The translations under genes and the position numbers were made by a program. From Thermodesulfobacteriota bacterium (GTDB lineage: Bacteria; Desulfobacterota_D; UBA1144; Nemesobacterales; JAJCZQ01): a stretch of 64,000 nt of DNA. This document shows, one piece after another, positions 10,454-55,577 of the stretch. The stretch covers positions 864,911-928,910 of the forward strand of contig CBDBDR010000017.1 in the NCBI GenBank assembly GCA_965203965.1, written 5' to 3'. The notes under the pieces were generated by a model that saw nothing but the letters and a program-made list of their open reading frames with translations, did not search any database and had not been told where the DNA came from. Each line of letters begins with the position of its first letter. Position 1 is the first letter of the stretch.

Positions 10454-10530
10454 TTTTTGGCGGAATTATTGACGCTTTAAATGGGGATTAAACGGGATTT
10501 AAACGGTGTTTAACAAGCGATTATTTTTCC
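10454..10530. repeat. 76-bp repeat element, copy 1 (inverted partner at 55501-55577)
   Basis: Identical to the reverse complement of 55501-55577 apart from one C/T mismatch. The similarity has sharp boundaries. There are internal short direct repeats (TTAAACGG x2). Confidence 0.75.
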
Positions 10531-10836
10531 ACTTACAAAAAATGACCGAAAACAGAGATAGTGTTGACTGCCAACGAGTTCCTAACCCCCCTTTAACATT
10601 GACTTTTTTTCTTTAAAATGTCCATAAATTCAGAGGTCAGCGATAATAAGTATCAAAAACTACAAATATTAAAAAGAGTAATGATTACAGGAGTTATGAC
10701 AGAAAAAAGGTAAAATTTAAGCAATTTACTTAAATATAGCGAAAAACAGTTGATTTGACGGATAAAAAAGACAAAAAACTTTTCCAACTCAACACCCCGA
10801 GTAGCCTCGCAACGTCATATAAGAATCGGGTCTGGG

Positions 10837-12549
10837 TCACTCAATATGAGCAGATTTTTGCCTGTCCCACGTATCACTCGTAATTCCCTGCTCTCTCAAT
10901 TTGTTCTTTTGAGTTCTCTGTGTCCCAGTTTTGGGAAAGGATTTTACAAACCTGACATACCTTGGGATCATAAAAGCAGGCATATTGGGTTCCAGAAATT
11001 TTACTAATTGATCCGGGTCTATCTTTACTCCCTCTTTAGAAATAATCAATATCATTATTTCGTTTTCCGCATATTTACCTTCTTCCGACTTAATCCCTAT
11101 TGCTGCCGACTCCTCTACATCCGGGTGGGAGTTAACTATCTTTTCTACCTCAAAAGAACTTACATTCTCTCCTCTTCTCCTTATGTAATCTTTCACACGA
11201 TCAACAAAATATATATATCCGTCTTCATCCATTTTACCGGCGTCTCCAGTGTGAAACCAGAAATTCCTGAAATCCTGCACCGTCTTTTCGGGCATTTTGT
11301 GGTAATAGTGGAGCATTATGTTGGGGATTCTTGGTCTTACCACTATCTCACCTATATCGCCTCTTGAAACCTCAATATCCGTTTGGGGGTCAACGATCTT
11401 TATTTCGTAATTTGGAGCTTCTTTTCCACATGATCCTACCCTGAACGGCTCACCCGGTCGCATCCAGGTGCACTGCCCGATTTCCGTCAAACCATAGCCT
11501 TCCATAATTCGGATATTAAACCTATGCATAAACTCCTCTACAATATCATGTGGAGCCGGCGAACCTAAAACTAACTTTACCTTGTGCTGTGTCTCTTCTA
11601 AAACGGGTGGAGTGTTCCAGACAAAGTAGCATATAGTCCCGACTATATTAAACTTTGTCACCTCATGGTCTTTCATCCACTTCCAGAAGTTGCGGGCACT
11701 GTATTTTTCTTCCACAACTGCCTTGGCACCCCTTATGAGCGCCGGATAAACGGTCATTACCATTGCGTTTGAATGAAAAAGTGGCAGACAGGTAAAGCAA
11801 ACATCGTTTGGACCCACATCCATAATTTCAACGTAGTTTCTTGCACTACTGTAATCCGCTGCTGAAGGTCTCATAACACCTTTTGATCTTCCAGTAGTCC
11901 CCGACGTATACATAAGCCTCGCATAATCCATGAAAGTAACTTCAATTCTCGGATCCTTTGAACTTTGCCCGTTTATAAAATCCGTGTAAGAGATCATATT
12001 TTTAAATTTAAATCCATGCCTTTTAAATTTAGGCTTTCCATCCTTCGTCCAAACAATAATGTGTTTAACTTGTGGAATTTTGTCCGCTATCGGTGGCATC
12101 CTGTCAAGATATTGTTCGGCAATAAAAAGAACTTTTGCATCCGAGTTGTCAATAACATATTGAAGGAAGTCCATCACGTATGCCGTATTGATCGGCACCA
12201 TGACCGCCCCCATTTTCAGTATGCCAAACCATGTAATGACGTAGTCATCAGAGTTTGGCATATATACTGCAACCTTTTCCTGCTTTTCTATACCGAGACT
12301 GACCAAACCGTTTGCGATCTTGTTAGCAAGTTGGTTTGTCTTGTGGAAGCTAATGGGGTTTTTATACCCGAACTGTAGAAAGGGTTTCTTGCCAAACTCT
12401 CTTGCTTGATCTTTCAAAATGCGTGGAAGCACCCACTCTGCCATATCTTCTTTCAGATACCACTCAACGTCAAACTTGCCGTTTTCCCTCTTGTAACTGA
12501 CCGTGTGCATTAGGTCTTTTGGTTTGGTCTTGGAAATCTTTTTTGCCAT
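10837..12549 (-). CDS. fadD: long-chain fatty-acid--CoA ligase (AMP-binding)
   Basis: AMP-binding signature YTSGTTGRSKGVM, plus the downstream GYGLTE and GDxG motifs. 570 aa. Confidence 0.85.
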   Translation of the reverse strand: MAKKISKTKPKDLMHTVSYKRENGKFDVEWYLKEDMAEWVLPRILKDQAREFGKKPFLQFGYKNPISFHKTNQLANKIANGLVSLGIEKQEKVAVYMPNSDDYVITWFGILKMGAVMVPINTAYVMDFLQYVIDNSDAKVLFIAEQYLDRMPPIADKIPQVKHIIVWTKDGKPKFKRHGFKFKNMISYTDFINGQSSKDPRIEVTFMDYARLMYTSGTTGRSKGVMRPSAADYSSARNYVEIMDVGPNDVCFTCLPLFHSNAMVMTVYPALIRGAKAVVEEKYSARNFWKWMKDHEVTKFNIVGTICYFVWNTPPVLEETQHKVKLVLGSPAPHDIVEEFMHRFNIRIMEGYGLTEIGQCTWMRPGEPFRVGSCGKEAPNYEIKIVDPQTDIEVSRGDIGEIVVRPRIPNIMLHYYHKMPEKTVQDFRNFWFHTGDAGKMDEDGYIYFVDRVKDYIRRRGENVSSFEVEKIVNSHPDVEESAAIGIKSEEGKYAENEIMILIISKEGVKIDPDQLVKFLEPNMPAFMIPRYVRFVKSFPKTGTQRTQKNKLREQGITSDTWDRQKSAHIE

Positions 12550-12639
12550 TTATAACTATTTTCCTATTATTTTACAAAGACGTTCAAGGAGAATATTACT
12601 CAAACATACTGAATGGGTAAACTATATTTTATCCCGTTA

Positions 12640-13857
12640 TCAACTTCTCGGATCAAATATCTCCCTCGCTATAAGCATCTTATGAATTTCATTTGATCCC
12701 TCATATATCTCACCAACCTTTGAATCTCTGTATATCTCTTCAACCTTGTAGTTGGATCTGTCATGTCCCAGTTCAACCATTAAACCCAGCCCTCCGAATA
12801 TTTGCACGGCATCCCTCGCCATGTCAACTGATACTTTTGACCCGTAAAATTTTGCACCAGACGATTCCAATACCGGGAATTTATTTCCCCTGTCAATTGA
12901 GAGAGCGCTCTTTACGTATAGATTTCTGGCGTTCTCTATCTCTATTGCTCTCTCTGCCATCAAAAACTGCCAGTGCTGAAATTGACTTATCTTTTTTCCG
13001 AAAGCTCTTCTCTTATCCATAAACCCTACACACTCATCAAAAGCTGACTGTGCCATTCCAACACCACTTGCTCCGATACCGGTTCTCCCATACATTAAGG
13101 CACCCACGCAAACCTTCAAGCCATCTCCTTCCCTGCCAATCAGGTTTTCCTCGGGAACTTCAACGTTATTAAAATATATATCGTAGGTCAACTCACCTCT
13201 GTTACCCAGTTTTTTGTCTGGCTCACTCACGCTACATCCCTCAGAATTCAAGTCAATAACCAACATGCACGGTCTGCCACCAATGTTGACTAGGGTTGAG
13301 ACGTAATCTGCAACCCCTGCGTTTGTTATATATCTCTTCTGACCACTTATCACATATTTCTTTCCTCTCTTAATCCCTTTGGTTATCAATGAGTCTGTCC
13401 TCACATCGGAACCTGATTGAGGTTCGGTCATTGCAAATGCCCCAATTGAGCTACACTCCAGGATCGGCTTCAGATATTTCGTCCTAATATATTCAGAGCC
13501 GAAACTGAGGCTTTTTCCTGCGAGCAGAAAATGTGCATTCACGGATCCCGCAAAACTGGCGCTCACGTAAGCCAACTCCTCAGTAAGAGATACCGAGGCA
13601 CAAGCGGGATACTTTAATCCCAGCCCCCCATCTGACTTTCCGAACGGAACTCTGAAAAGACCTTTCTCTGCCATTGATCTGAAAAGCTCCCAAGGGAAAT
13701 TAGCGTTATCTTCGACTTTCTGTCCTATCTGATATGCTTGTGGTAACAACTCATCTTCAGCAAACCGCCTGTATTTTTCACGTAACTCTAACGTTTCATC
13801 GGGAATAAGCTGATCATTATAAAGTTTATTTTGCATCCTTGGAGGTAATTTTCTCAT
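12640..13857 (-). CDS. acyl-CoA dehydrogenase
   Basis: ACAD signatures (FAMTEPQSGSD, a C-terminal helical domain containing YEGSNEI). Confidence 0.85.
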   Translation of the reverse strand: MRKLPPRMQNKLYNDQLIPDETLELREKYRRFAEDELLPQAYQIGQKVEDNANFPWELFRSMAEKGLFRVPFGKSDGGLGLKYPACASVSLTEELAYVSASFAGSVNAHFLLAGKSLSFGSEYIRTKYLKPILECSSIGAFAMTEPQSGSDVRTDSLITKGIKRGKKYVISGQKRYITNAGVADYVSTLVNIGGRPCMLVIDLNSEGCSVSEPDKKLGNRGELTYDIYFNNVEVPEENLIGREGDGLKVCVGALMYGRTGIGASGVGMAQSAFDECVGFMDKRRAFGKKISQFQHWQFLMAERAIEIENARNLYVKSALSIDRGNKFPVLESSGAKFYGSKVSVDMARDAVQIFGGLGLMVELGHDRSNYKVEEIYRDSKVGEIYEGSNEIHKMLIAREIFDPRS

Positions 13858-13953
13858 TTGGTTTCTCCTTTTTCCGACTTTTACATGTCTTAAAAGATTT
13901 GATTACACACATATTTTACGGCTAATATTAGAACAAACAACCAATATGATATT

Positions 13954-14958
13954 ATGCCAAAATTAGCGTTTGTTCTTCCAAATTGGGCAACGATCAACAA
14001 AGAGGGGATTATTTTCTACTCACATCTTGCTGAGGAACTTGGTTACGATTCCATCTGGGTTCCCGAGACTTGGGGCAATGATGCTTTTACCCTGCTGACT
14101 ACCATTGCTCACAACACAAAGACCTTGAAATTTGGAACAGGAATCACATCGATTTACAGCAGAAGTCCCGCTATAATGGCACAGACTATATCAACCATTG
14201 ATTCCATATCGGGTGGTAGAGCTATTTTAGGACTTGGTGCAAGCACGGGAATAGTGAATGAAAACTGGCATGGGATCAAACATGAAAAACCCGTTCAAAG
14301 AACCAGAGAATACGTTGAGATCATAAGACTAATACTGAGCGGTAAACGCGTAAATTACAAAGGTGAAATATTCAATCTAAAAAACTTCAGTCTACAATCC
14401 GAACCTTTGAGGAGAAATATTCCTATCTATCTTGCTTCACTCGGATCCAGAAATTTGCAATTGACAGGAGAAATAGCTGATGGATGGCTGCCTTTCCTTT
14501 GTTCTGTCAGCCATTTAATAGAGCTGAAGAACGAGGTGGAAAAAGCATCCGTAACCGCAGGGCGGACTACAAATAATATTTCAATATGTCCTTATGTCCC
14601 TACGCTATTATCCGATGAAACGGGACAGGCTGATCATAAACTGAAAGAGTTCATATCATTTTACGTGGGAGCAATGGGACCTTTTTACAGCAGGCTGATA
14701 GCCAGCTACGGGTTTGAGGATGAAGCAAATAGCATCAGGGACGCATGGAGCAGAAAAGATACGGCAGGTGCTACTGAGAGTGTCAGCAACAGGCTCTTGG
14801 ATGCAGTATCTGTAAACGGCTCTCGCAAATATGCACTGGGCAAGTTGAGAGCATTTCGATCCGAAACCGATTGTCCTGTTCTAATATTCCCCTTCAAAGC
14901 CTCTCGTGAACAGGTAGTGGAAACACTAAAGAAACTTGCACCCAACGGTATGTATTGA
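13954..14958 (+). CDS. LLM-class (luciferase-like) flavin-dependent oxidoreductase
   Basis: TIM-barrel LLM N-terminus (YDSIWVPETWGNDAF...LKFGTGITSIYSRSP). 334 aa. Confidence 0.75.
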   Translation: MPKLAFVLPNWATINKEGIIFYSHLAEELGYDSIWVPETWGNDAFTLLTTIAHNTKTLKFGTGITSIYSRSPAIMAQTISTIDSISGGRAILGLGASTGIVNENWHGIKHEKPVQRTREYVEIIRLILSGKRVNYKGEIFNLKNFSLQSEPLRRNIPIYLASLGSRNLQLTGEIADGWLPFLCSVSHLIELKNEVEKASVTAGRTTNNISICPYVPTLLSDETGQADHKLKEFISFYVGAMGPFYSRLIASYGFEDEANSIRDAWSRKDTAGATESVSNRLLDAVSVNGSRKYALGKLRAFRSETDCPVLIFPFKASREQVVETLKKLAPNGMY

Positions 14959-14960
14959 CT

Positions 14961-15704
14961 TTAATCCCCGTTTTGATCTGTTTTTTTACCGAACATAAGG
15001 GCAATGTATATACCGATCTCATAAAAAACAAGTAATGGTATCAGCATAAACATCATTGATATGGCGTCAGTTGTCGGGGTGATCAGTGCGGCGGCAACGG
15101 CACTAAGAAGCACGGCATACTTTCTCTGCTTTTTTAGCCAGTTGCTTGTAACAAGCCCCATTCTTGCGAGGATAAATACCAAAATGGGAGACTCAAAAAC
15201 CAGTCCGAAACCTATCATAAGAGAGAGCAGGAACGAAAGACTCTCTTTTATTGTGGGAAAAGCCTTTATATACTCGGTTGAATACTCTCCGAGCAAAAAG
15301 CCGAACCCTTTTGGAGCAACAACGTAATAGCAAAACATCGCACCACCAAGAAAAAACGCCGTGCCAAACAAGAGAAAAGGAAGCAATACTCTCTTTTCTC
15401 TCCTGTATAAAGCCGGGGAAATAAAGCTCCATAATTGATAAAGAATAACGGGAAAGGAAGCCGTAAATGCGGTAAAGATCGAGACTTTCAGATAAGTCAT
15501 AAACCCCTCAGCAGGCTTTATAAATATCATTGAACTACCACTTGGCAGACTCTCTATCACGGGGATCATAAGGAAATTGAATATCTCTTTTGAAAAAAAG
15601 TAGGAGGGTATAAAAAATACAAAGACAGTTATAAGTACATAAAATATCCTTTTCCTGAGTTCTTGAACGTGACCCAGAAAGTTCATTGATCCTTTCTCAT
15701 CCAT
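14961..15704 (-). CDS. tatC: twin-arginine translocase subunit TatC
   Basis: Six-TM protein with the TatC N-terminal motif (HVQELRKRIFYVLI). The start was moved to the internal MDEK. Confidence 0.85.
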   Translation of the reverse strand: MDEKGSMNFLGHVQELRKRIFYVLITVFVFFIPSYFFSKEIFNFLMIPVIESLPSGSSMIFIKPAEGFMTYLKVSIFTAFTASFPVILYQLWSFISPALYRREKRVLLPFLLFGTAFFLGGAMFCYYVVAPKGFGFLLGEYSTEYIKAFPTIKESLSFLLSLMIGFGLVFESPILVFILARMGLVTSNWLKKQRKYAVLLSAVAAALITPTTDAISMMFMLIPLLVFYEIGIYIALMFGKKTDQNGD

Positions 15705-15785
15705 GATTTTAAATCTTAACCAAACCGCAATTTTCAAACAATTTAACAGTTTGAACCATAACCGTCTTGTGATTGACAAAAACAG

Positions 15786-17428
15786 ATGCTCAAATATATT
15801 TTACATCCTTACTATACCCACCATTTTTGGAGAAATAATTTGAGAATACTAGCTACGGATGGACTTTCTGCGGAAGGGGAAAAGATTATCAGGTCAACAG
15901 AGGGAATTGATATTATCGTAAACAAGAGAACAGAGGTTGCAACACTGCTGAAAGAAGTAAAGAATTATCAGGGATTGATCATAAGGAGCGCAACAAAAGT
16001 TACAAAAGAAGTAATAGACGCTGCAGAGGGAAATCTGAAGGTAATAGGAAGGGCAGGCATCGGGGTAGATAACATTGACGTAGAAGCAGCTACAAGAAAC
16101 GGCATAGTCGTTATGAACACTCCGGAGGCAAACGCAATCACAACGGCAGAGCATAGCCTTGCACTTCTTTTTTCACTTGCGAGGAATATACCACAGGCAC
16201 ATCACTCCCTTGCCATAGGCAAGTGGGAAAGAAACAAATACAAGGGAGTTGAACTTTATGGAAAAACCATCGGTTTTATAGGTTTGGGCAAGATTGGGAA
16301 ATTAGTTGCCGAACGTTCCATAGGAATAAAGATGAAAGCCATCGCTTATGACCCCTTTTTAACACGCGACGCCGTTGCAAAACTGGGGGTTGAACTTGTC
16401 TCATTTGACGAGCTACTTGAAAGATCAGACATAATAAGCATACACACACCCTTTACGAAGGAAACAAAAGATCTAATAAACTCAGAAACCATCAGCAAAA
16501 TGAAGCAAGGTGTCCTGTTGATCAACTGTGCGAGGGGAGGCATTGTCAATGAGGAAGATCTGGCAAAAGCCTTAAAGGAAGGCAGGATCGCAGGAGCCGG
16601 CATGGATGTTTACTCTAGCGAACCAATTGAAAGTGACAATCCTTTACTTAGTGTTGACGAAGACATAGTCCACACTCCCCACTTAGGCGCATCAACCGAA
16701 GAAGCACAGAGAAAAGTCGGGGTTGCCATTGCTGAGCAAATTGTTGATTTTGCAACGAACGGAGTGGTAAGAAACGCGGTAAATATGCCTTCTTTAGACC
16801 TTGAACAGCTAAAATCTGCAAAGCCATATTTAAGTCTTGCCGAAAAGATCGGGAGCCTGCACGGACAAATATGCAAGGAAGCTGTCAAATATATAAGCAT
16901 TGAATTTGCCGGAGAGGTCGCAAAACTGAACACTGAATCTCTTACCATCGCAGCTCTTAAAGGTTTTCTCACACCCATAATGGACATGGTGGTTACATAC
17001 GTTAATGCCCCGATCATAGCTAAAGAGCGCAGTATTAAGGTTGTGGAATCAAAAACCGAAACCACAAATGAGTTCACAAACCTGATAAAGATCACGGTAA
17101 CAAGTTCAGATAAAACAACGGAAATATCCGGGACGATATTTGGAAAGGATGAACCAAGATTTGTTCGTCTTAATGGCATACCAATTGACGTAAAACCCCA
17201 GGGCTACCTGCTCTACAGTGAAAATTATGACAAGCCCGGGTTCATAGGTTCAATGACCTCCTTACTTGGAGAAAACGGAGTAAATATCGGACTTATGCAC
17301 CTTGGTAGGGAGAAGATCGGGGGAAGAGCCATTGTATTTACAAACGTTGATTCTCCCATATCGGAGGAGCTTATGAACAAAATAGGCGAACTCCCATTTA
17401 TGATCTCCTTAACACAGGTCAATTTTAA

Positions 17429-17432
<4 letters not shown>
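15786..17432 (+). CDS. serA: D-3-phosphoglycerate dehydrogenase (with ASB/ACT domains)
   Basis: 2-hydroxyacid dehydrogenase fold (GKTIGFIGLGKIG, catalytic HTPHLGAST) plus a long C-terminal regulatory extension. 548 aa. The exact start is uncertain. Confidence 0.9.
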
Positions 17433-19950
<2,518 letters not shown>

Positions 19951-19996
19951 CCCTTTTTTGTAGCTCTTTTTCCCCCAAACAGAACATAAGTAAAGT

Positions 19997-20965
19997 CTAA
20001 GTAAGTTTTTCATAAGCTTCAATTATTTCCCTCACCAGCGGATGCCTCACAACGTCATTCTTGTTAAAATATACAAGATCAATCCCTCTGAGATTAGACA
20101 GCAGGGATTCAGCTTCCATCAACCCTGAATTTTTGCCTTCTGGTAGATCAATCTGGGTTTTATCACCGGTTATAACTGTCTTTGAGCTGAAACCGAGCCT
20201 TGTTAAAAACATCTTCATCTGGTTTGAAGTAGTATTTTGAGCTTCATCAAGAATAACAAATGCATCGTTCAGTGTTCTTCCCCTCATAAACGCGAGAGGG
20301 ATGATCTCTATAGCGCCTTTTTCCACCAGATTTGTTACCTTTTCCATATCCATCATTTCATAAATAGCATCGAACAGAGGTGTCAGGTATGGGTCAACTT
20401 TTTGAGAAAGATCACCCGGCAAAAAACCCAGCTTTTCACCAGCCTCAACGGCGGGTCTCGCAAGAACTATCCTGCTGACCTTTTTGTTCAGAAAAGCAGA
20501 AACGGCCATGGACACGGCAAGGTAGGTTTTGCCCGTTCCAGCGGGACCAATACCGAAAACAATGTCGTTCTTTCTTATTGCGTCAATATAGATCTTTTGA
20601 TTAATGCTTTTGGGAGTTATCAGTTTCTTTCGTATGGAAACACAAACTGTGTCCAGAAATATCTCTTCCAGCGTGGTCTTTTCTTCTTTTAATATGCGGG
20701 ATGCAAGTTCTATATCACACGGTTCAAGATTGTAGCCTTTTTCCACGAGTGCATGGAGCGATTCTATCAGCTTTCCCGTTTCTTCAACGCCATCGCGGGG
20801 ACCTTTTAGGACAAATTGAGTTCCCCGTGAGTGGATCTTAACACCATAGACATTTTCTATCTCCTTTAAATTCCCGCTCAGTTTGCCGTATAAATATTTC
20901 ACAAAACCCGGATCATCAATTTCTATGTATTTGGTTGACTCATCGGTTTGCGGGAACTTCTCCAT
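19997..20965 (-). CDS. phoH: PhoH-family ATPase
   Basis: Walker A GPAGTGKTYLAV. PhoH-like fold, 322 aa. Confidence 0.9.
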   Translation of the reverse strand: MEKFPQTDESTKYIEIDDPGFVKYLYGKLSGNLKEIENVYGVKIHSRGTQFVLKGPRDGVEETGKLIESLHALVEKGYNLEPCDIELASRILKEEKTTLEEIFLDTVCVSIRKKLITPKSINQKIYIDAIRKNDIVFGIGPAGTGKTYLAVSMAVSAFLNKKVSRIVLARPAVEAGEKLGFLPGDLSQKVDPYLTPLFDAIYEMMDMEKVTNLVEKGAIEIIPLAFMRGRTLNDAFVILDEAQNTTSNQMKMFLTRLGFSSKTVITGDKTQIDLPEGKNSGLMEAESLLSNLRGIDLVYFNKNDVVRHPLVREIIEAYEKLT

Positions 20966-20989: not shown

Positions 20990-21490
20990 TTGAATATTTT
21001 TCATTTGATTGCCAATGTCACTCTATTATGTATCTTAACGATCTGTAAACTGGGCTTTAATGGAGGAGTAATGGAGGAATACTGGGGAGCAACAAAGGAA
21101 AACATAATTGAGAAGTTGGGCAAGCCCCACGAAACAAAAAATAATGAGCATAGCGGACTTGAGGAATTGACTTACGTCTTTCCTCCTAAAGCGGACTTTC
21201 AACCTCAAAAGGAAGTAACCTACGGTTTTCACAATAACAGCCTCGTGATAATATCTACCGGCTATGATTTTAACGAAGGGCTTTTCAAGCAGTATGAGCT
21301 ATACCATAAATCCCTTGAGGACAACTGGAACAAAAGGCTGGAAACCGAGCCCGTAAAGAACACGAAGGATGAAGAGGGAAATATAGTTACGATATGGAAA
21401 GCTAATAATTCAGAGATAGTGCTGTTTTTTAACAACAACCCCGAGAGCCCTGATCTTGTGGTTATTCAGAATTACAAGCCGTCAGATTGA
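20990..21490 (+). CDS. hypothetical secreted protein
   Basis: N-terminal hydrophobic segment. No recognisable domain. Confidence 0.35.
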   Translation: MNIFHLIANVTLLCILTICKLGFNGGVMEEYWGATKENIIEKLGKPHETKNNEHSGLEELTYVFPPKADFQPQKEVTYGFHNNSLVIISTGYDFNEGLFKQYELYHKSLEDNWNKRLETEPVKNTKDEEGNIVTIWKANNSEIVLFFNNNPESPDLVVIQNYKPSD

Positions 21491-37016: not shown

Positions 37017-38972
37017 ATGACAGAAAATTTTAACGGATTAAAGGTGACCTCGTTTGAAAGCCGTCTCTCAGAAGAGATGAAAAGGCTGATCTCCTATCAT
37101 GGTGGTATCGCCAGAGTTTCCCCCTCTATGAAAGAGTTGCCGGTTAAATCCACAAATATATCAAAATTTATTGAAACCCTCTACCAAAATAAAGTTGATG
37201 TGCTTGTTCTGTTTACAGGTGTCGGAACGCGAATGCTATCTGATTATGTAAAAAGGGAATGCGATTTTGAAAAATACACGGCAGCTTTGAGCAAGATCAG
37301 TATAGTTGCAAGAGGACCGAAACCAGTTTCAGCACTAAAAAGAATTAACATAAAGCCCAAAATTACAATTCCTGAACCAAACACGTGGAAAGATGTCCTG
37401 CAGACTATGGATGGGAAACTAAAGATCAATAAAAAAACGGTTTACGTCCAGGAATACGGTATTTCCAATAGGGAATTTATTAAATGCCTTGAGGAACGAG
37501 GGGCAAAAGTGGAGACAATAACCGTTTATAAGTGGGGATTTCCTGACGATTTAAAACCTCTTGAAGATGCAGTAAGATCCATAGACAACGGCAGGGAAGA
37601 CGTTGTCCTGTTTACAAGTTCACAGCAAGTTGTAAATCTTTTCAGCATAGCATCTGGATTGGGCTTGAAAAATAACCTGCGCAATTCTCTCTCTGACGTA
37701 GTTGTTGGTTCCATAGGTCCGACTACAACGGAGACACTGAAAAATTATGGAATATCTGCAGACTATGAACCCGACAGACCAAAGATGGGCAATTTTGTCA
37801 GAGAACTTGCAAGAGCTTCAAACAGGCTCTTGCTGAAAAAAAGAAAAGCACGCAATCTTGGAATAGAAACTTCTGACTGGAAAAGAATTGATATGGTCTG
37901 GGACAATAATGATCCCCTGCAAAAAACAAACAAAAAACGAGATTCAGTTTTTTTGAAAGCATGCGATCTTAAACAAACTGATTATACCCCTATCTGGATA
38001 ATGAGACAGGCGGGACGGTTTATGAGAGAATACAGGGAGATAAGATCAAGGGTATCTTTTCTGGAAATGTGCAAAACTCCTGACCTTGCCGCCGAAGTAA
38101 CTCTTATGGCAGTTGAGAGGCTGGACGTTGATGCAGCAATTATATTTTCGGATATTTTACTCATATTGCAGTCGCTCGGACTTAACTTGGAATACAGTGC
38201 AAATGATGGTCCTAAAATCAATAAAGCACTGCAAACTCCCTCAGCAGTTGATTCACTGCTTGAATTTGAGCCAGAGTCAATGGAGTTTGTATACAGTGCA
38301 ATAAAACTGACCAGAAGAGCACTAAATCCGCAAAAGTCATTAATAGGTTTTGCAGGAGCTCCCTTTACCCTCGCATCCTATGCAATTGAGGGCGGTGGTT
38401 CACGCGGTTACGAAAAAACCAAATCCCTCATGTTCAAAGACCATAATGCCTGGAATTTACTGATGACCAAACTTACCAATGCCACGGCAACCTATCTTAA
38501 CAAACAGATTGATGCAGGAGCAGATGCCGTTCAGATCTTTGACAGCTGGGTCGGCTGCCTATCTCCGGGTGACTACGGCGAATTTGTCCTTCCACATACA
38601 AAAAATCTTGTAAAAATGATAAATAAAAACGTACCAATAATTTTTTTTGGCACGGGCACTTCATCACTTTTAAAGCAAATTGCCGAGACAAAATGCGGGG
38701 TTATAGGTATTGATTGGAGAATTGATATAAAAGAAGCATGGAAACAGGTGGGTTATGACAGGGCAATACAGGGCAATTTGGATCCGGTTGTAATGCTTTC
38801 CACTCAATCACACGTTAACGATGAGGCAAAAAGAATTTTGAATGAAGTGGATGGTAGACCGGGACATATTTTTAATCTTGGGCACGGCGTATTGCCCGGA
38901 ACTCCCGTAGATAACGTTTTATCTTTGGTTGACACTGTCCATGAATACTCATATAAAATGGGAAAAGGATAA
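37017..38972 (+). CDS. hemD-hemE: fusion protein: uroporphyrinogen-III synthase (N) + uroporphyrinogen decarboxylase (C)
   Basis: Residues 1 to about 270 resemble HemD (two-lobed HEM4 fold: LVLFTGVGTR...VVLFTSSQQV). Residues from about 300 onward carry the UroD signature TPIWIMRQAGRFMREY and the rest of a UroD barrel. The ORF is continuous at 651 aa. Confidence 0.8.
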   Translation: MTENFNGLKVTSFESRLSEEMKRLISYHGGIARVSPSMKELPVKSTNISKFIETLYQNKVDVLVLFTGVGTRMLSDYVKRECDFEKYTAALSKISIVARGPKPVSALKRINIKPKITIPEPNTWKDVLQTMDGKLKINKKTVYVQEYGISNREFIKCLEERGAKVETITVYKWGFPDDLKPLEDAVRSIDNGREDVVLFTSSQQVVNLFSIASGLGLKNNLRNSLSDVVVGSIGPTTTETLKNYGISADYEPDRPKMGNFVRELARASNRLLLKKRKARNLGIETSDWKRIDMVWDNNDPLQKTNKKRDSVFLKACDLKQTDYTPIWIMRQAGRFMREYREIRSRVSFLEMCKTPDLAAEVTLMAVERLDVDAAIIFSDILLILQSLGLNLEYSANDGPKINKALQTPSAVDSLLEFEPESMEFVYSAIKLTRRALNPQKSLIGFAGAPFTLASYAIEGGGSRGYEKTKSLMFKDHNAWNLLMTKLTNATATYLNKQIDAGADAVQIFDSWVGCLSPGDYGEFVLPHTKNLVKMINKNVPIIFFGTGTSSLLKQIAETKCGVIGIDWRIDIKEAWKQVGYDRAIQGNLDPVVMLSTQSHVNDEAKRILNEVDGRPGHIFNLGHGVLPGTPVDNVLSLVDTVHEYSYKMGKG

Positions 38973-38980
38973 GGTATGAG

Positions 38981-39904
38981 ATGAAAAAAGATTTTGGAGC
39001 AGTATTGCTAATTGGATACGGAGCACCTGAGAAGCCAGAAGATATTATTCCTTTTCTCAAAAACGTAGCCAGTGGATTTTCCATACCTGAAGACAGGCTG
39101 AAGGAAGTGGCACATCACTATGAGCTTATAGGCGGTAGATCACCATTAAACGAGTTGACGGAGAAGCAAGCGGAAAAGTTACAAAAGTTATTGTCAGATG
39201 ACGGGTATAAACTCCCGGTATTTATCGGTATGAGAAATTGGAATCCTTTTATATCGGACAGCGTAAAGAAAATAGCAAATTTAGGAGTTAACAGGGTAAT
39301 AGGGGTTATAATGGCTTTACACCAGTCGGATGCAAGTTGGCAAAGATACCAGAGAGACGTTGATGAAGCTGTTGCAAGGATCGGGATTAAAACTGAATTT
39401 GTCTATACAAAACCGCTTTTTGACAACCCACTATTCATACAAAGCAGTTCTAATCAGGTAAGGAAATGCTTTGAGAAAATTAACGGTTCAGAGTTAGAAA
39501 ACACAAAGTTAATATTTACGGCACACAGTATTCCTGTAAAAATGGCAGAAGCCTCTCCCTACGTTGCACAGTTTGAAAAATCAGCCAGATTGGTTGCAGA
39601 AAATCTACGGCATAAAAGTTGGATGACTGCCTACCAGAGCAGAAGTGGTTCACCAAGTGTCCCATGGCTTGAACCGGACGTCTGTAACGTCATCAGTATT
39701 CTGGGCAACAAAGGGGTTAAAAATATAGTGATACAGCCAATAGGCTTTATGTGTGATCACGTGGAGGTACTTTACGACATCGGAATAGAAGCACAGGAAG
39801 CCGCTGAAGAAGCTGGTGTGAATTTGCATATTGCCAAAACTGTGAATGATGATGACCTGTTCATAAGAGCTATCTGTGATGAAATTGTAAGTAAAATCCA
39901 GTGA
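38981..39904 (+). CDS. hemH: ferrochelatase
   Basis: N-terminus AVLLIGYGAPEKPEDIIPFLKNV. The HSIP and CDHVEVLYD motifs are present. 307 aa. Confidence 0.9.
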   Translation: MKKDFGAVLLIGYGAPEKPEDIIPFLKNVASGFSIPEDRLKEVAHHYELIGGRSPLNELTEKQAEKLQKLLSDDGYKLPVFIGMRNWNPFISDSVKKIANLGVNRVIGVIMALHQSDASWQRYQRDVDEAVARIGIKTEFVYTKPLFDNPLFIQSSSNQVRKCFEKINGSELENTKLIFTAHSIPVKMAEASPYVAQFEKSARLVAENLRHKSWMTAYQSRSGSPSVPWLEPDVCNVISILGNKGVKNIVIQPIGFMCDHVEVLYDIGIEAQEAAEEAGVNLHIAKTVNDDDLFIRAICDEIVSKIQ

Positions 39905-41310
39905 AAATTGCAATAATTGGCTCCGGAATATCAGGTTTGAGCAGCGCCTATCATTTGAACGTATTGGCAAAGAAGTTAGGTGCAGACATTGAAATAGATA
40001 TAATGGAAAAAAACCATGCACCGGGCGGCGTAATCTCAACTATAAAAGAAAATGGCTTTATATTTGAAGAAGGAGCCGATTCTTTTATTACTACCAAACC
40101 TTGGGCTCTTGAAATATGTAGGGAAATCGGACTTGGATCCAAACTGATCTCTCCTTGTCAAAGTAATAGAAGAGCTTTTGTATATTTTGACGGCAAGCCA
40201 AACGCTCTGCCTGACGGATTTTTTCTCATGGCACCCTCAAATGTAAATTCATTTCTGGCAAGCGACTTTTTTTCCGGTAAGGAAAAAGAAAGGATATTAG
40301 ACGAACGGCTCGTTTGCGTAAAAGAAGACAATCTGGAAGAAAGTGTTGATGATTTTGTCAAAAGGAGATTCGGAAATGCCCTCCTCGAAAAAGCAGCCAA
40401 GCCACTGGTTGGTGGAATTTACACAGGCGACACAAAAAAGCTAAGTATTAATGCCGTCTTACCTGAATTTGTTTTAATGGAGAAAAAATTTGGCAGTGTA
40501 ACTAAAGGATTGCAGGAAAAACACGGAACTTCAAAATCCGAAAGTGGGGCAAGATACGGTTCATTTTTATCTCTGCAGGACGGCATGAGCACGTTGGTCA
40601 ATGGTCTTGTTAAAGCTATAAATGGGGTAAATTTTCACTACAACTGCAAAGTAATATCTATCCATAGGAAAGACAATAAATGGGTCTTGACTGATAAAAA
40701 GAAAAAAGAGCGTTTTTTTGATGCACTTGTGCTGGCTGTCCCTCCTTATACCGCATCCGAACTTGCCAGAGATATAGATACTGATTTATCAAATGCGCTG
40801 AAAAAAATTGAATCCGCTTCCTCAATCGTTGCCAATATTGCGGTCTTAAAAAAAGATCTGGTAAATTTCCCCAAAGGAGCAGGCATTGTTGTCCCCCCTT
40901 CAGAAAAAATGAACATATTGTCATGCTCTTTCACAAACCGCAAATTTCCGGGCAGATGTGCCGATGAATACGAGATAGTAAGATGTTTTGCAGGGGGAGT
41001 ATTAAACCCTGAACTGCTTTACAAAAATGAAAACGAGATAGCCGATCTTATTATCAGTGAACTCAGATTGATACTGAATGCAGACTTAAAACCTTTGTTT
41101 ACAAGAATAAAAAAATATTTCTACACAATGCCTCAATACAATCTTGGACATCTGGATATAGTCAGAAAGATCAACAATAGAGTATCTACCTTAAAAACAG
41201 TCGCCATTGCAGGCAACGCCTACAATGGCGTAGGCATCCCGGACTGTATTAAAAGCGGGCAAAACGCCGCAAATCTCATTTTGATCGACACTGTTCAGAA
41301 CAACAATTAA
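39901..41310 (+). CDS. hemY: HemY-type protoporphyrinogen/coproporphyrinogen oxidase (FAD)
   Basis: Rossmann IAIIGSGISGLSSAY and the amine-oxidase fold. The start overlaps the hemH stop (GTGA). Confidence 0.85.
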   Translation: MKIAIIGSGISGLSSAYHLNVLAKKLGADIEIDIMEKNHAPGGVISTIKENGFIFEEGADSFITTKPWALEICREIGLGSKLISPCQSNRRAFVYFDGKPNALPDGFFLMAPSNVNSFLASDFFSGKEKERILDERLVCVKEDNLEESVDDFVKRRFGNALLEKAAKPLVGGIYTGDTKKLSINAVLPEFVLMEKKFGSVTKGLQEKHGTSKSESGARYGSFLSLQDGMSTLVNGLVKAINGVNFHYNCKVISIHRKDNKWVLTDKKKKERFFDALVLAVPPYTASELARDIDTDLSNALKKIESASSIVANIAVLKKDLVNFPKGAGIVVPPSEKMNILSCSFTNRKFPGRCADEYEIVRCFAGGVLNPELLYKNENEIADLIISELRLILNADLKPLFTRIKKYFYTMPQYNLGHLDIVRKINNRVSTLKTVAIAGNAYNGVGIPDCIKSGQNAANLILIDTVQNNN

Positions 41311-48900: not shown

Positions 48901-48956
48901 TTTTTTCTCCCTTCGGATTCAAATTATTTTTCAATCTTACATTATAAATAACTACC

Positions 48957-49748: not shown

Positions 49749-49894
49749 AAGGTTTATATTGTAACCGATTCATAGTGTAACAAACTCAGGGACAGTAACT
49801 CATAACAAATAATGAAAAACCCCCGAGTTAATGGGGTAGTTCCAAATTATGTGGTGGTAATAACAACGTTGATGGCATAATCTATAATTATCCC

Positions 49895-50764: not shown

Positions 50765-50772
50765 TCTCTACT

Positions 50773-52893
50773 TTATTTTCTGGATATTGATGCGCCTTTG
50801 AGTTCTTTTATGGATTTATTGAAGTGCTTATTGCAGATCGTAAAAACCCTTTTCTTGCTTGTGATGTGATCTTTTATAGCCAGAATTGCCGAGCGTTTAC
50901 AAATAAATTCCACATCTGCACCATTAAGTCCTTTTAATTTGGATGCAATATCTTGAAGGTTCACGTCTTTATTGAGAGGCTTGTGGTTTGTGTGTATTTT
51001 TAAGATCTCGTAAATTTCTCTGACGTCTGGATACGGAACTTCAAGGATTAGATCAAACCTGCCAGAACGCAGCATCGCAGGATCCACCATGTCTATTCTG
51101 TTAGTTGAAGCAAGAACAAAAACATCAATTAACTCTTCAACACCGTCAATCTCGGTCAGAAATTGACTTACTACTCTTTCAGATACCCTGTTGGAATCTA
51201 TGTTCCTATGTGGTGTGATAGCATCAACTTCATCAAAGAAGATTATTGAGGGCGATACCTGTCTGGCTTTACGAAAAATCTCCCTGACGGCTTTTTCTGA
51301 TTCCCCCACGTATTTGGAAAGCAATTCGGCTCCTTTGATAGAAATAAAATTCACGTTGCTTTGGTTTGCAAGTGCCTTTGCAAGTAGGGTTTTCCCTGTG
51401 CCGGGTGGACCTGATAGCAATATTCCTTTGATAGTATTGACCTTTGCACTTTTGAACAGCTCTTTATGCTTGAGCGGAAGAGCGACGGACTCTATCAACT
51501 TCTCTTTTATTTCTTCCAGCCCTCCCACTTCGTTCCACGTTACCTTTGGGATTTCAATCAGTACTTCCCTGATAGCAGATGGATTGACCCCTTTGAGAGC
51601 TTCAAGAAAATCATCCATATTCACCCTGAAAGAATTGGTGTTCTCAAATTCAAACGACTCATCGTAAAATTCAAGATCGGGCAACGTCCTCCTAAGAGCT
51701 ATCATTGCAGCTTCTTTGCAAAGGCTTTCTATGTCAGCTCCCACAAAACCCTGTGTTCTCTCCGCAATCTCGCTGAAATCAACATCTGAGGAAAGAGACA
51801 TTTCCCTTGAATGCACCTTGAGAATTTCATATCTGGAATTCTGGTCTGGAACTCCGAGGTGTATCTCTCTGTCAAATCTGCCGGGCCTTCTCAAAGCGGG
51901 ATCAATAGCGTCTGGTAAGTTGGTTGCACCAATGACCATTATATTGCCTTTTTCCTTAACTCTGTCCATAAGCGTCAGCAGTTGTGAAACAACTCTTTTT
52001 TCAACGTCCCCCGTTACTTTATCTCTCCTCGGTGCAATTGCATCAAGTTCGTCAAGAAAAATTATGGAAGGCTGATGTTTAGATGCAACTTCAAGAAGAT
52101 TCCTGATCTTTGCTTCACTCTCGCCGTAGTGCTTCTGTATAATTTCCGGTCCGTTTACGATTTGAAAATTCATGTTTGATTCATTTGCTATTGCGTTTGC
52201 CAGAATGGTTTTTCCGCTTCCTGGCTGACCGATCAGAAGTACGCCTCTCGGTGGTTCAATGCCCAATTTTGCAAACACTTGAGGGAATTTAAGTGGGAAC
52301 TCTATTATCTCGCGGATTTTGCTTATCTGGCTGGAAAGTCCGCCCAAATCATCATAGCAAACGTTGTGCTTGTTTATTTTTCCCGTTGGCTTTTTACGCA
52401 CGTCAACTTTGGTATGCTGATTAACAACCACACAGTTAGACGGCGTGGTATTTAAAACATCAAAACTCTCACTTTTTGACCCGGGTATTCTTACCGGGAT
52501 CGTATCGCCGGCAGCCAGTGGCAATCCTTCAATAGAGTGGGGTATAAATTTCAATCTTTCTGGGTTATATAGAACATCTTTATTATGAGGACACAAAACC
52601 ACTCTACTCGCATTTTTTGAATTGGCTCTTTTAACCGTTACAAACTCATCTATATCAGCACGTGCATTTTCACGAGTGTATAGATCAATTTCTATTATTA
52701 ACTCCATTTCACAGCTTTCATATCCATTCAACTCAAGTGGCATAGCTCTTACAAAGGTTTTTCTTCTCCCGCCAACCTCTATCATATCCCAAGTAGTTAT
52801 ACCCAGATCCATCATGCTGCGCTCGCTTATACGCGCATACCCTTTTCCCGCGTCCCGTGCATGTATTTCTGAAATTCTTAAGGAAATCATTAC
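50773..52893 (-). CDS. CDC48/VCP-like AAA+ ATPase (N-domain + tandem D1/D2 AAA modules)
   Basis: CDC48-type N-domain, then two AAA cassettes with Walker A GPPGTGKT / GQPGSGKT, Walker B DELD / DEVD, and SRH regions. The start was moved to the internal Met. Confidence 0.85.
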   Translation of the reverse strand, partial: VMISLRISEIHARDAGKGYARISERSMMDLGITTWDMIEVGGRRKTFVRAMPLELNGYESCEMELIIEIDLYTRENARADIDEFVTVKRANSKNASRVVLCPHNKDVLYNPERLKFIPHSIEGLPLAAGDTIPVRIPGSKSESFDVLNTTPSNCVVVNQHTKVDVRKKPTGKINKHNVCYDDLGGLSSQISKIREIIEFPLKFPQVFAKLGIEPPRGVLLIGQPGSGKTILANAIANESNMNFQIVNGPEIIQKHYGESEAKIRNLLEVASKHQPSIIFLDELDAIAPRRDKVTGDVEKRVVSQLLTLMDRVKEKGNIMVIGATNLPDAIDPALRRPGRFDREIHLGVPDQNSRYEILKVHSREMSLSSDVDFSEIAERTQGFVGADIESLCKEAAMIALRRTLPDLEFYDESFEFENTNSFRVNMDDFLEALKGVNPSAIREVLIEIPKVTWNEVGGLEEIKEKLIESVALPLKHKELFKSAKVNTIKGILLSGPPGTGKTLLAKALANQSNVNFISIKGAELLSKYVGESEKAVREIFRKARQVSPSIIFFDEVDAITPHRNIDSNRVSERVVSQFLTEIDGVEELIDVFVLASTNRIDMVDPAMLRSGRFDLILEVPYPDVREIYEILKIHTNHKPLNKDVNLQDIASKLKGLNGADVEFICKRSAILAIKDHITSKKRVFTICNKHFNKSIKELKGASISRK

Positions 52894-53003
52894 TACCTCT
52901 ACTGAGATTTTACAGGCACTCATATTGAGGTCAAGAATCACGACAAATTGAACTGGTGATTATTCTATTTATAATTGTTCAACTCGAATTTATACTATGC
53001 CCC

Positions 53004-54092
53004 GTGAAATTAAGATCCCTAAAACTGAGGAATTTCAGAACTTATGAAAATCTGAACATCTCCTTCCACAATAAGTTTAATCTTTTCTACGGTAACAATG
53101 CTCAGGGGAAAACCAACCTCCTTGAAGCCGTTTACTATATCTGCTCGTTCAGATCATTTAAGTCAGCTAAAAATGAGGAATTGATAACTTTTGGACAGGA
53201 AAATGCCGGAGTAAAGGGCGAAATAGTATCAAAACATGGATTTGATGAGATCAACATTCACATAAACAGGAGCAAAAAGAACATAAAACTGAACGGCAAA
53301 GTAGTTTACAAGCTCAGCAGTCATCTGGGACGATTTGGAGTAGTACTTTTTGTCCCAAAAGATCTGGAAATTGTCAGAGGCTCACCGGGAGTAAGACGCC
53401 GTTACATTGACGCTCTTGTATGCAACCTGAACGCAGATCACGTAAATGACCTCAAAAGCTACAACAAGATCATAAGCCACAGGAACAAGATCCTTGCTAG
53501 TCCAAAAAATATCAACAGTAATATGCTTGAAGTATTGGATGCAAAAACTGCTGAAACAGGGGCAAGCCTAACGGCAAGAAGACTAAAGATAATAAATGAC
53601 CTGACAAAAAGACTTGGCGAGCTTTACAACTCCACCTCCGGCGTCAGTGCAAAAATTGACATAGCTTATAAAACGTCTTATGAGAGAGATAGAGATATTC
53701 AGGGTTCAATATTGAAGTCGTTAAAAAAAAATTTTAATAAAGACCGAGCAAAAGGACATACCACCGCTGGGCCACACAGAGACTACGTGGGCCTAAGGAT
53801 AGACGGTAATGATACAACGGTATATGCCTCACAGGGTGAATCCAAGAATTTTGTTCTTGCCCTAAAAGCTGCTGAAATAAATATCTATGAATCAACAAAA
53901 GGACAAAAACCGATCCTTCTACTTGATGATATTACCAGCGAGCTTGATAGGAGCAGAAAAAGTTTTTTATTTCAACTTTTAAGAAACTACGATGGACAGG
54001 TATTTGTAACTTCAACCGGGGCAGACGAAATCCCCTACAAAGGAGATAAAAAAGTTTTCAGAGTAACAAAGGGTAAGGCACAGGAAGTTTGA
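53004..54092 (+). CDS. recF: DNA replication and repair protein RecF
   Basis: N-terminus LKLRNFRTYEN and Walker A GNNAQGKTNLLEAV. The ABC signature and D-loop (LLLDDITSELD) are present. The likely GTG start at 53004 (VKLRS) is in frame with the longer ATG ORF that begins at 52956. Confidence 0.8.
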   Translation: MKLRSLKLRNFRTYENLNISFHNKFNLFYGNNAQGKTNLLEAVYYICSFRSFKSAKNEELITFGQENAGVKGEIVSKHGFDEINIHINRSKKNIKLNGKVVYKLSSHLGRFGVVLFVPKDLEIVRGSPGVRRRYIDALVCNLNADHVNDLKSYNKIISHRNKILASPKNINSNMLEVLDAKTAETGASLTARRLKIINDLTKRLGELYNSTSGVSAKIDIAYKTSYERDRDIQGSILKSLKKNFNKDRAKGHTTAGPHRDYVGLRIDGNDTTVYASQGESKNFVLALKAAEINIYESTKGQKPILLLDDITSELDRSRKSFLFQLLRNYDGQVFVTSTGADEIPYKGDKKVFRVTKGKAQEV

Positions 54093-54164
54093 TTTATGCG
54101 GGAAACGTGCGATCAGACGCTTTCCAGTTAAAATAAACTCAGTTTCTGACAAATGGAGATAAAA

Positions 54165-55055
54165 ATGAATGTAAAAATCATGGATTTAAATTTTTTTGGA
54201 ACTGAGACAATTGCATCCTACCTTGTAGAAACAAGCGAGGGACCTTTTATCATTGAGACGGGACCTGCTTCTACTTTTGAGAATCTTGAAAAAAGTATTT
54301 CCAACAATGGTTATAAAATTTCGGATATAAGCAACGTATTTGTAACTCACATACACCTTGACCATTCCGGTGCAGCGTGGAAGTTTGCAAAAGAAGGTGC
54401 CACAATTTACGTGCATCCGAGAGGTGCCCCGCATCTTATTGACCCCGAAAGGCTTATGGCTTCCGCAACAATGATCTATGGAGACAGGATGGATGAGCTT
54501 TGGGGTAGAGTTGAAGGAATAGATGAAGATAAGGTAATTCCTACTGAGGACGGGCAGGTAATAAAAATAGGCAACGTTGAGATACAAGTGCATGAAACAG
54601 CAGGACACGCCAACCACCATAACGCATACCTTATAGAGAATAACCTTTTCACGGGTGACGTTGCAGGGTGCAGAATTGCGGACGGTCCGCCAATCCCGCC
54701 AACACCTCCCCCGGAAATACACGTTGAAAGGTGGCACAACTCTGTGGATAAGATACGCAGTATAGATCCCGAGGCACTTTACCTCACACATTTTGGAAAA
54801 TTCACAAACGTAAAAGAGCATTTGGATAACCTTATAAAAACCCTTGACGAATGGTCAGTTTGGATGGGTGAAAGGGTAAAAAATGGGAAACCGGAAGAGG
54901 AAATCACACCTGAATTTCTTGAATTTTACAGGACGTATTTTAGCAAATTTGGCACATCAGAGTCCGTGTTTGAAAAATACGAATCAGCTGACCCTCATTG
55001 GATGAACGTCGGAGGACTTATAAGATACTGGAACAAGTATAAACTGGCTGAATAG
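54165..55055 (+). CDS. MBL-fold metallo-hydrolase
   Basis: HxHxDH motif (THIHLDHSG) and later His/Asp ligands. GGAG RBS 7 nt before the ATG at 54165. Confidence 0.8.
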   Translation: MNVKIMDLNFFGTETIASYLVETSEGPFIIETGPASTFENLEKSISNNGYKISDISNVFVTHIHLDHSGAAWKFAKEGATIYVHPRGAPHLIDPERLMASATMIYGDRMDELWGRVEGIDEDKVIPTEDGQVIKIGNVEIQVHETAGHANHHNAYLIENNLFTGDVAGCRIADGPPIPPTPPPEIHVERWHNSVDKIRSIDPEALYLTHFGKFTNVKEHLDNLIKTLDEWSVWMGERVKNGKPEEEITPEFLEFYRTYFSKFGTSESVFEKYESADPHWMNVGGLIRYWNKYKLAE

Positions 55056-55125
55056 CCTCAATGGTTTATCAACCTGTGTCTATTGCTGTTTTGATAATTC
55101 ATAGTTACAATTGACCTTTTTTGAT

Positions 55126-55202
55126 CGGGGCGTGGCGCAGTTGGCTAGCGCGCGGCATTTGGGATGCCGAGGTCGGAGGTTCAAGTCCTCTCGCCCCGAC
55201 CA
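55126..55202 (+). tRNA. tRNA-Pro (anticodon TGG)
   Basis: Acceptor CGGGGCG/CGCCCCG, anticodon stem CGGCA/TGCCG with loop TTTGGGA, T-arm GGTTCAAGTCC, encoded CCA. Confidence 0.85.
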
Positions 55203-55210
55203 TTATTACA

Positions 55211-55372
55211 TCATACCCTCTCCACAACCATAGCTATCCTCATTTCTCCCCCTATGCAGAGAGATACCATTCCATACTTGGCATTCTTATCACTATTAAG
55301 TTCATAAAGAATTTTATAAGCATTATGGCTCCCGTTGCCCCAACGGGGTGTCCAAGTGCAATTATAACGGGA
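55211..55372 (-). pseudogene. decayed duplicate of the 3' end (last ~53 codons + stop) of the thiolase gene
   Basis: About 93% nucleotide identity to 55754-55915. It begins exactly at the stop codon and carries a 1-nt deletion that shifts the frame. It abuts the 3' end of tRNA-Pro. Confidence 0.7.
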
Positions 55373-55500
55373 CACGTAAAATGGCACAATGAGACAAAAA
55401 ACCGAAAAATGACCGAGACGAAAATTAAGTAAATTACTCAATTTTTATTTCAAGGGGGTATTTGCCCTCATTTTTGCCCCGCTTTTTGAGGAATTTAAAC

Positions 55501-55577
55501 GGAAAAATAATCGCTTGTTAAACACCGTTTAAATCCCGTTTAATCCCCATTTAAAGCATCAATAATTCCGCCAAAAG
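55501..55577. repeat. 76-bp repeat element, copy 2 (inverted partner of 10454-10530)
   Basis: Reverse complement matches copy 1 at 75/76 positions. It sits between the thiolase fragment and the intact thiolase 3' end. Confidence 0.75.

Follow-up and report, generated by a model that had tools for sequence, protein, structure and literature searches.

Introduction

In Escherichia coli the e14 prophage is flanked by the icd gene on one side and by icdC, a pseudogene of the C-terminal part of icd, on the other (PMC13626634). The 64,000-nucleotide stretch of DNA analysed here (the window; assembly GCA_965203965.1 of a Thermodesulfobacteriota bacterium, contig CBDBDR010000017.1, positions 864,911 to 928,910) holds a locus of similar layout at the 3' end of the thiolase gene thl. 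As in e14/phage 21 and icd, an insert appears to have brought along a near-identical 3' end of its target gene, and the original end is displaced as a direct-repeat pseudogene. Within this insert lies one of two copies of a 76-bp element, which are located about 45 kb apart in opposite orientation and are the subject of this study.

The element itself calls for comparison with other described systems. Short direct repeats about one helical turn apart occur in the non-coding DNA of mobile elements, for example in the tandem P' sites of lambda attP and in the iterons of plasmids. The core of the 76-bp element, a predicted protein-binding array, resembles such iterons and arm-type integrase sites, which is a likeness and not membership. 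With the Correia, ERIC, RUP and BIME elements it has in common a length below 150 bp, a non-coding, intergenic location, sharp borders, some dyad symmetry and occurrence in one lineage. Finally, a segment flanked by inverted repeats is typical of invertible switches (Hin/Gin, fim, shufflons) and of large inversions between inverted copies of insertion sequences or rRNA genes.

An initial annotation of the window had noticed the repeat pair and had considered a chromosomal inversion switch, a past rearrangement, a dispersed repeat family or a small-RNA gene. Our tentative preference, to which we assign a probability of roughly 0.45, is for a relic of mobile DNA: the 76-mer would be a short repeat of low copy number, confined to the species, that sits in scar DNA at two remodelled junctions and is not a working inversion switch.

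Results

The 76-bp inverted repeat

The segment from 10454 to 10530 on the plus strand equals the reverse complement of 55501 to 55577 at 75 of 76 bases, as the initial annotation had stated, and the single C/T mismatch that it mentioned is located at 10473. The two copies are:

Copy 1: 10454..10530, plus strand, weak homology out to 10451-10535
Copy 2: 55501..55577, minus strand, weak homology out to 55496-55580

The longest exact match between them is 57 bases (76 with one mismatch). The arms delimited by a repeat finder are longer (10451-10535 versus 55496-55580; 85 nt with 95% complementarity), and alignment of the flanks and spacers with MAFFT revealed no further homology, in line with the abrupt end of similarity on both sides of each copy that had been reported. 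The two spacers share only the 85-mer and a 14/23-mer, the remaining 11-12-mers being A/T-rich chance matches. A 32-nt core occurs exactly twice in the window and was not matched in any of 100 dinucleotide-preserving shuffles. The 76-bp repeat is real and not a product of chance.

Neither degenerate nor partial copies of the 76-mer were detected elsewhere in the window, and there was no further copy in approximately 94 kb of conspecific sequence, which comprise the window and about 30 kb of contigs including L082, L087, L088 and L001. L082 is an ENA contig of a 98%-identical strain; L001 and L088 are Logan short-read contigs, and L087 is a third contig from the neighbourhood of copy 1. Searches of 121 fetched loci with nhmmer and blastn found the element in conspecific contigs only, and an exact search with a 24-nt core gave no match in genome, metagenome and viral contig collections, which are without this lineage. 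The element thus appears to be restricted to this species-level lineage.

Contigs L001 (100% identical to the window) and L088 (98.7%) come from separate Logan runs, both carry the fadD-like gene next to copy 1, and both end at window position 10501, exactly 30 nt (k-1, with k = 31) inside the exact repeat of copy 1. Because de Bruijn contigs stop k-1 bases into copy 1, the repeat has at least two sequence contexts in those samples. The divergence between the copies (1/76) is similar to that between strains (1-2%). In L082 the orthologue of copy 2 (L082 11369-11444) differs at 2-3 of 76 positions, each of them in the left arm, and the few sites that vary among the three full copies are in the left arm or at the edges.

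An apparent integration scar at the 3' end of thl

Copy 2 is located inside a 390-bp non-coding insert, on either side of which the 3' end of thl is present as a direct repeat of 153 bp. The features of this junction are as follows:

tRNA-Pro(TGG): 55126..55202, plus strand, convergent with repeat A' at a distance of 7 nt, presumed original neighbour of the thl 3' end
Repeat A': 55210..55362, minus strand, displaced fragment of the thl 3' end, 93-96% identical to A
Segment B: 55363..55752, minus strand, 390-bp non-coding insert with copy 2, between the two copies of the thl 3' end
Repeat A: 55753..55906, minus strand, functional end of thl, 153 nt up to and including the stop codon
thl: 55754..56950, minus strand, acetyl-CoA C-acetyltransferase gene, last gene of acd-hbd-crt-thl and likely target of the integration

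The layout corresponds to that of the e14/phage 21-icd type in that a gene-end duplication brackets inserted DNA, the inner copy restores the open reading frame (ORF) and the outer copy is non-functional. The thl product is intact, with full-length matches to Thiolase_N and Thiolase_C, while A' carries a 1-nt deletion that shifts the frame and has GGGMG changed to GGEMR. It appears that thl stayed intact because a replacement for its last 153 nt arrived with the element. A further correspondence with the e14/icd type is that the content of the insert differs between close strains at the same junction (see below). The duplication signature and this polymorphism show copy 2 to lie inside an integration scar, which we take to be the remnant of an element integrated into the 3' end of thl.

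An integrase gene beside the attachment site was found neither in the window nor in about 3 kb of the L082 island. Among the genomes compared, none has thl directly abutting tRNA-Pro as expected for an empty site, relatives at 80% identity having a different neighbourhood. The 390-bp insert had no blastn match in phage and plasmid collections. A similarity of segment B to the 5' end of the fadD-like gene (21/26 nt around ATGGCAAAAAAGA) was dismissed as a low-complexity chance match.

Strain polymorphism at the thl junction and beside copy 1

Contig L082, whose thiolase is 97% identical to the thl product, matches the window at 98% identity between 60000 and 55365, a stretch that takes in acd-hbd-crt-thl, A and all of B with the element. 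Exactly at the B/A' junction the contig diverges into at least 2.8 kb of a defence-gene island:

L082 island: L082 11581-14349, a HARE-HTH gene, an AlbA_2 gene that matches PADLOC candidate defence family PDC-S19, and an ORF with a Res-like C-terminus

PADLOC did not recognize the third ORF, whose C-terminus is Res-like by eye. L082 breaks off before the distal junction of the island is reached. Since L082 continues into an island exactly where the remnant meets A', the 3' end of thl is probably an active island junction, and the window apparently carries a minimal version of an insert that varies in content among near-identical strains.

Upstream of the acd-thl operon, both strains have variable type III restriction-modification and other defence-like genes. 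In the window (59875-63991) these are a type III Res-like helicase of 985 amino acids, a DUF4411 protein and an M78/ImmA-like peptidase; in L082 (780-7069) they are a type III Mod of 901 amino acids, two small ORFs and a Res of 849 amino acids. As these defence-type genes also vary between strains, variable islands seem to be present on both sides of the β-oxidation operon.

A different kind of strain variation was observed directly beside copy 1:

Strain-hypervariable patch: 10536..10600, without strand, adjoining copy 1, compared with L088

About 22 differences to the 98.7%-identical strain are concentrated in these 65 nt, whereas the adjoining 400 nt have 3. The 35 bases of the element covered by L088 next to the patch are without a difference. 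Both alleles of the patch probably coexist in the sample of L087 because that contig stops within k-1 bases of the patch.

Gene-order breakpoints at both copies

Copy 1 begins 33 nt past the stop codon of a small zinc-ribbon ORF and lies 306 nt before the stop codon of the convergent fadD-like gene:

FmdB-like ORF: 10172..10420, plus strand, 82 amino acids with CxxC motifs and, at the C-terminus, a hydrophobic stretch; similar to zinc-ribbon proteins of the FmdB kind; flanks copy 1 on the outer side
fadD-like gene: 10837..12549, minus strand, AMP-dependent ligase; flanks copy 1 on the inner side with its 3' end, from which point on gene order in relatives departs from that of the window

NCBIfam gave weak hints only for the FmdB-like ORF. 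A 23-nt inverted repeat (9289-9311 and 10184-10206, 96% complementary) encodes the peptide HVCDVCG both at the start of this ORF and in an OmpA-domain lipoprotein gene (9057-9788, minus strand); the two proteins are otherwise unrelated.

The comparison of gene order with relatives, which the initial annotation had proposed, was carried out and revealed breaks at both copies and relatives without the element. Loci with thl orthologues that are about 80% identical (L083-L086) have only the four-gene operon in common with the window. Downstream of their thl, with the next gene only 18-100 bp away, are variable small ORFs or a sulfatase, followed by fumC; these loci have no tRNA within 10 kb and no 76-bp element. 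Loci with fadD-like orthologues at 81-83% identity (L089-L091, L114, L119) keep the order of serA, tatC, a luciferase-like gene, an acyl-CoA dehydrogenase gene and fadD. Some 45 bp past fadD, however, genes follow on the same strand that the window lacks, and none of the genes of the window's left flank is found there. Hence, relative to relatives at 80-83% identity, both copies are found in lineage-specific long spacers at gene-order breakpoints. The suggestion of a past rearrangement fits these breakpoints and the location of copy 2 in an integration scar.

In L114 (83%) the counterpart of window 10855-20938 is flipped with respect to the gene at 21068-21430. One end of this inversion is at the 3' side of fadD, the other near window position 20.97 kb, and three extra genes are present at the fadD-side junction. 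The L114 inversion appears to be independent, with the 3' end of fadD as a common breakpoint.

Internal architecture of the element

Within both copies, four short units of the TTTAAAC type are phased exactly 11 bp apart:

Four-unit core, copy 1: 10474..10517, plus strand, units GCTTTAAATGG, GGATTAAACGG, GATTTAAACGG and TGTTTAACAAG, read from the sequence
Four-unit core, copy 2: 55514..55557, minus strand, the identical four units
14-mer near copy 1: 10720..10733, plus strand, AGCAATTTACTTAA, 189 nt downstream of copy 1 in the orientation of the element
14-mer near copy 2: 55425..55438, minus strand, AGTAATTTACTTAA, 62 nt downstream of copy 2; L082 has AGCAATTTACTTAA here

From TTTAAATGGGG to TTTTTCC the core is unchanged in every copy seen. 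We regard it as a predicted protein-binding array because phasing of short repeats by one helical turn is typical of such arrays. Around the core are imperfect dyad arms, GGAATTATTGACGCTT on the left and AAGCGATTATTTTTCC on the right, which match at 11 of 16 positions when one of them is reverse-complemented. The arms do not mark the limits of the homology, which on the left side runs about 11 nt past the dyad. A companion 14-mer, AGYAATTTACTTAA, is found on the same side and strand of both copies, at distances of 189 and 62 nt. Within the window it is confined to these positions; two or more matches arose in 1 of 100 shuffles.

Every reading frame of the element is closed. Its fold z-scores are -0.05, -3.84, -1.64 and -0.36, varying by copy and strand, and Rfam gave no match at gathering thresholds or at E values up to 1. 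In the alignment of the three copies, differences between strains break predicted pairs and none is compensated (covariation term +0.89). Because of the inconsistent folding, the missing Rfam match and the absence of compensated pairs, a structured RNA is not supported, and neither is the proposed small-RNA gene. Promoter and terminator scans were at background level.

Gene setting of the copies and the 45-kb interval

Annotation of the ORFs with Pfam agrees with the claim that the interval between the copies holds housekeeping genes only. They include serA, hisS, purA, phoH, a ferritin gene, pyrD, ychF, nfi, carA, gatB, ogg, a LysM/SLT protein gene, ddl, exbBD, a decarboxylase gene, hemD-hemE, hemH, pfk, queG, obg, a prepilin peptidase gene, a Cdc48-like ATPase gene and recF; four tRNA genes are also present. 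None of the ORFs of the whole window has a transposase or recombinase domain in Pfam, which is consistent with the earlier remark that a conventional mobile element is not an obvious explanation: a conventional transposon does not account for the pair.

Each copy was rightly described as lying in a long non-coding stretch, 416 bp (10421-10836) for copy 1 and 551 bp (55203-55753) for copy 2, both between convergent genes. The 551-bp spacer includes the 153-bp thiolase pseudo-fragment A', which had been overlooked. The β-oxidation neighbours were also correctly recognized, namely the fadD-like ligase and acyl-CoA dehydrogenase genes at copy 1 and acd-hbd-crt-thl at copy 2. Since each copy is located downstream of a convergent gene end and not in a promoter region, proximity to these genes looks incidental. 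A replication fork trap with opposed Ter sites was considered and rejected, as the cumulative GC skew declines steadily along the window and most genes to either side of each copy are on the minus strand.

Some genes of the interval deserve mention in their own right. The ORF at 29840-32104 (minus strand) encodes an SLT transglycosylase of 754 amino acids with seven LysM domains and contains, at 29991-30839, a 183-bp tandem repeat of 98% identity (four 300-nt copies at 183-nt spacing); the near identity of the LysM units suggests recent expansion or concerted evolution. A 651-amino-acid ORF (37017-38972) is a fusion of HemD (uroporphyrinogen-III synthase) and HemE (uroporphyrinogen decarboxylase). 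It is followed by the ferrochelatase gene and an amine-oxidase-family (HemY/HemG-like) gene; the ORF at 39901-41310 encodes an amine-oxidase-family protein and is not fumC. Within 50773-54092 lies the gene of a Cdc48/VCP-like double-AAA ATPase of 722 amino acids with a CDC48_N domain, in a bacterial context. Next to it is recF, to which dnaA, dnaN and gyrB are not adjacent.

Discussion

Origin of the element

Taken together, the duplicated thl end, the strain-specific island and the breakpoints at both copies lead us to propose the following course of events. A mobile element would have integrated into the 3' end of thl and supplied a replacement for its last 153 nt. The original 3' end would then have been displaced to its place next to tRNA-Pro, where it has been decaying as A', and a 390-bp remnant with copy 2 would have been left between A and A'. 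Copy 1, in its 416-bp lineage-specific spacer at the 3' end of the fadD-like gene, may likewise be a relic, left by this element or by a relative of it. The core of both would represent a binding array of the element's own DNA-binding protein, for example arm-type sites of a recombinase or iterons, which stayed recognizable while the rest of the element diverged or was deleted.

Several points weigh against this proposal. As no integrase or recombinase gene was seen in the window or in the roughly 3 kb of the L082 island (the contig ending before the far junction), the designation as an integrative element derives from the duplication signature and the strain polymorphism. The 76-bp element is 176 nt away from A and 138 nt from A', which is rather far for classical arm-type sites if crossover took place at the distal limit of the 153-bp homology. 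Around copy 1 neither a gene-end duplication nor direct repeats or another hallmark of a mobile element were found, and the presumed nature of this copy as a relic is deduced from context. Likewise, the putative binding of a protein is deduced from the geometry of the repeats. A methyltransferase relic suspected beside copy 2 (peptide LIGIEKSKKYVDMAKKRL) was not confirmed: Pfam gave nothing, NCBIfam only CcrM with E = 0.0027, and an exhaustive phmmer comparison with 1.84 billion proteins yielded just one hit, to a eukaryotic KH-repeat protein, which is spurious. Finally, if many more copies were present in the rest of the genome, a self-dispersing repeat family would be the more likely explanation.

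Such a family is the main rival of a relic of integrated DNA, although we consider it unlikely. The element would be a self-dispersing miniature repeat similar to miniature inverted-repeat transposable elements (MITEs), REP or Correia elements and mobilized by a transposase in trans, with many copies in intergenic regions of this genome, and two unrelated insertions would have ended up in inverted orientation by chance. This would be compatible with the sharp boundaries of homology, the intergenic position between convergent genes, the restriction to one species, the imperfect internal dyad (11/16 positions) and the breaks of de Bruijn contigs at the element; moreover, at the density of two copies per 64 kb, a genome of 1.5 Mb would contain about 45 copies. 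Unlike MITE and REP elements, however, the repeat has no target-site duplication at either copy, the flanks having no direct repeat in common, and its dyad arms apparently do not coincide with the limits of the homology, as terminal inverted repeats would. It does not form a stable hairpin (z = -0.05 to -3.8). Two copies are all that was observed, with neither degenerate or partial ones elsewhere in the window nor an extra one in the conspecific contigs, and the window encodes no transposase.

It is improbable, in our estimation, that the second copy is a passive, functionless patch, templated once during break repair or by a template switch at a rearrangement junction (filler DNA or a short tract of gene conversion). 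The presence of only two copies, inverted, at breakpoints and with abrupt borders would be expected of such an event. Their divergence of 1/76, close to the 1-2% between strains, also agrees with it, and strong constraint is not evident from the 2-3 of 76 positions that differ in copy 2 of L082. Yet the companion 14-mer, 189 nt from one copy and 62 nt from the other, is hard to reconcile with one contiguous patch. The 35 identical element bases in L088, next to about 22 differences in 65 nt, suggest that the element is conserved or homogenized, and the regular 11-bp phasing suggests a functional site.

A function in gene expression is still harder to defend. If the element were a cis-regulatory site or a small-RNA gene common to two β-oxidation loci, its position next to fatty-acid degradation genes, the likeness of phased repeats to an array of transcription factor sites and the core that is invariant in all copies would find an explanation. 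Each copy, however, is downstream of a convergent 3' end and upstream of no gene, their orientations relative to the adjacent operon are opposite, and the orthologous loci of all relatives at 80-83% identity are devoid of the element. The RNA version of the idea conflicts with the results for Rfam (E up to 1), with the lack of covariation and with strain changes that break pairs; promoter and terminator scans, at background, do not help it either.

Only slightly less credible, and in our view a long shot, is the speculation that array and 14-mer together form the recognition module of a recombination or DNA-capture system. Such a module would set where defence islands are inserted and exchanged in this streamlined lineage and, being present in inverted copies, could also allow reversible inversion of the 45-kb segment, the hypervariable patch beside copy 1 being a footprint of exchange.

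The chromosomal inversion switch of the initial annotation, by which a site-specific recombinase or RecA would flip the 45-kb segment to give two chromosomal isomers, has the near-perfect inverted repeats (57 exact bases, 76 with one mismatch) as a possible substrate of homologous recombination and the coincidence of both ends with gene-order breakpoints in its favour, but we judge it very improbable, given that no recombinase gene is present anywhere in the window (Pfam), that the segment consists of 45 kb of housekeeping genes whose minus-strand bias and GC skew are unchanged across both borders, that L082 continues across copy 2 and has the outer as well as the inner flank of the window there, and that the un-inverted adjacencies (fadD 3' end with thl 3' end; FmdB-like ORF with tRNA-Pro) were seen in no relative. 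As to orientation, L082 matches the arrangement of the window across copy 2, and the short-read contigs stop inside copy 1. Neither an orientation-dependent promoter nor alternative gene ends were found, the segment being made up of housekeeping operons. It differs from known invertible switches by its 45 kb of core genes, by the lack of an adjacent invertase and by the lack of evidence for two orientations. An exact match of 57 bases suffices for rare RecA-dependent exchange, and recombination between the copies could occur at low frequency; an active or recent inversion, or its use by the cell, is unsupported.

Significance and comparison with known systems

If a relic of integrated mobile DNA is the correct explanation, its implications are mostly ordinary. 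It would illustrate the gain and loss of defence islands by an uncultivated bacterium with a small genome, in which the 3' end of a metabolic gene is the site of exchange, and that perfect-looking short inverted repeats around core genes can be debris of mobile DNA and not switches. The 3' end of thl next to tRNA-Pro could then serve as a marker for an island hotspot in this lineage, and the 76-mer as a tag of the responsible element. Greater importance would be attached to the locus only if a new recombinase acted on the array or if both orientations of the 45-kb segment occurred.

Compared with arm-type sites and iterons, the array is at a larger distance from the duplicated gene end (138-176 nt) than is typical, and neither a cognate protein nor a crossover core was identified. 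The replacement 3' end of icd in the e14 system is about 165 nt long, as against 153 nt for thl. Different from e14 and icd, the thl locus retains only a 390-bp insert with no visible integrase. The gene concerned is that of a thiolase, and the lineage is uncultivated, the nearest relatives with a name being labelled Candidatus Dadabacteria or Thermodesulfobacteriota. In combining an integration scar at the 3' end of a gene with a short repeat derived from mobile DNA, the locus described here is a fresh example of known features.

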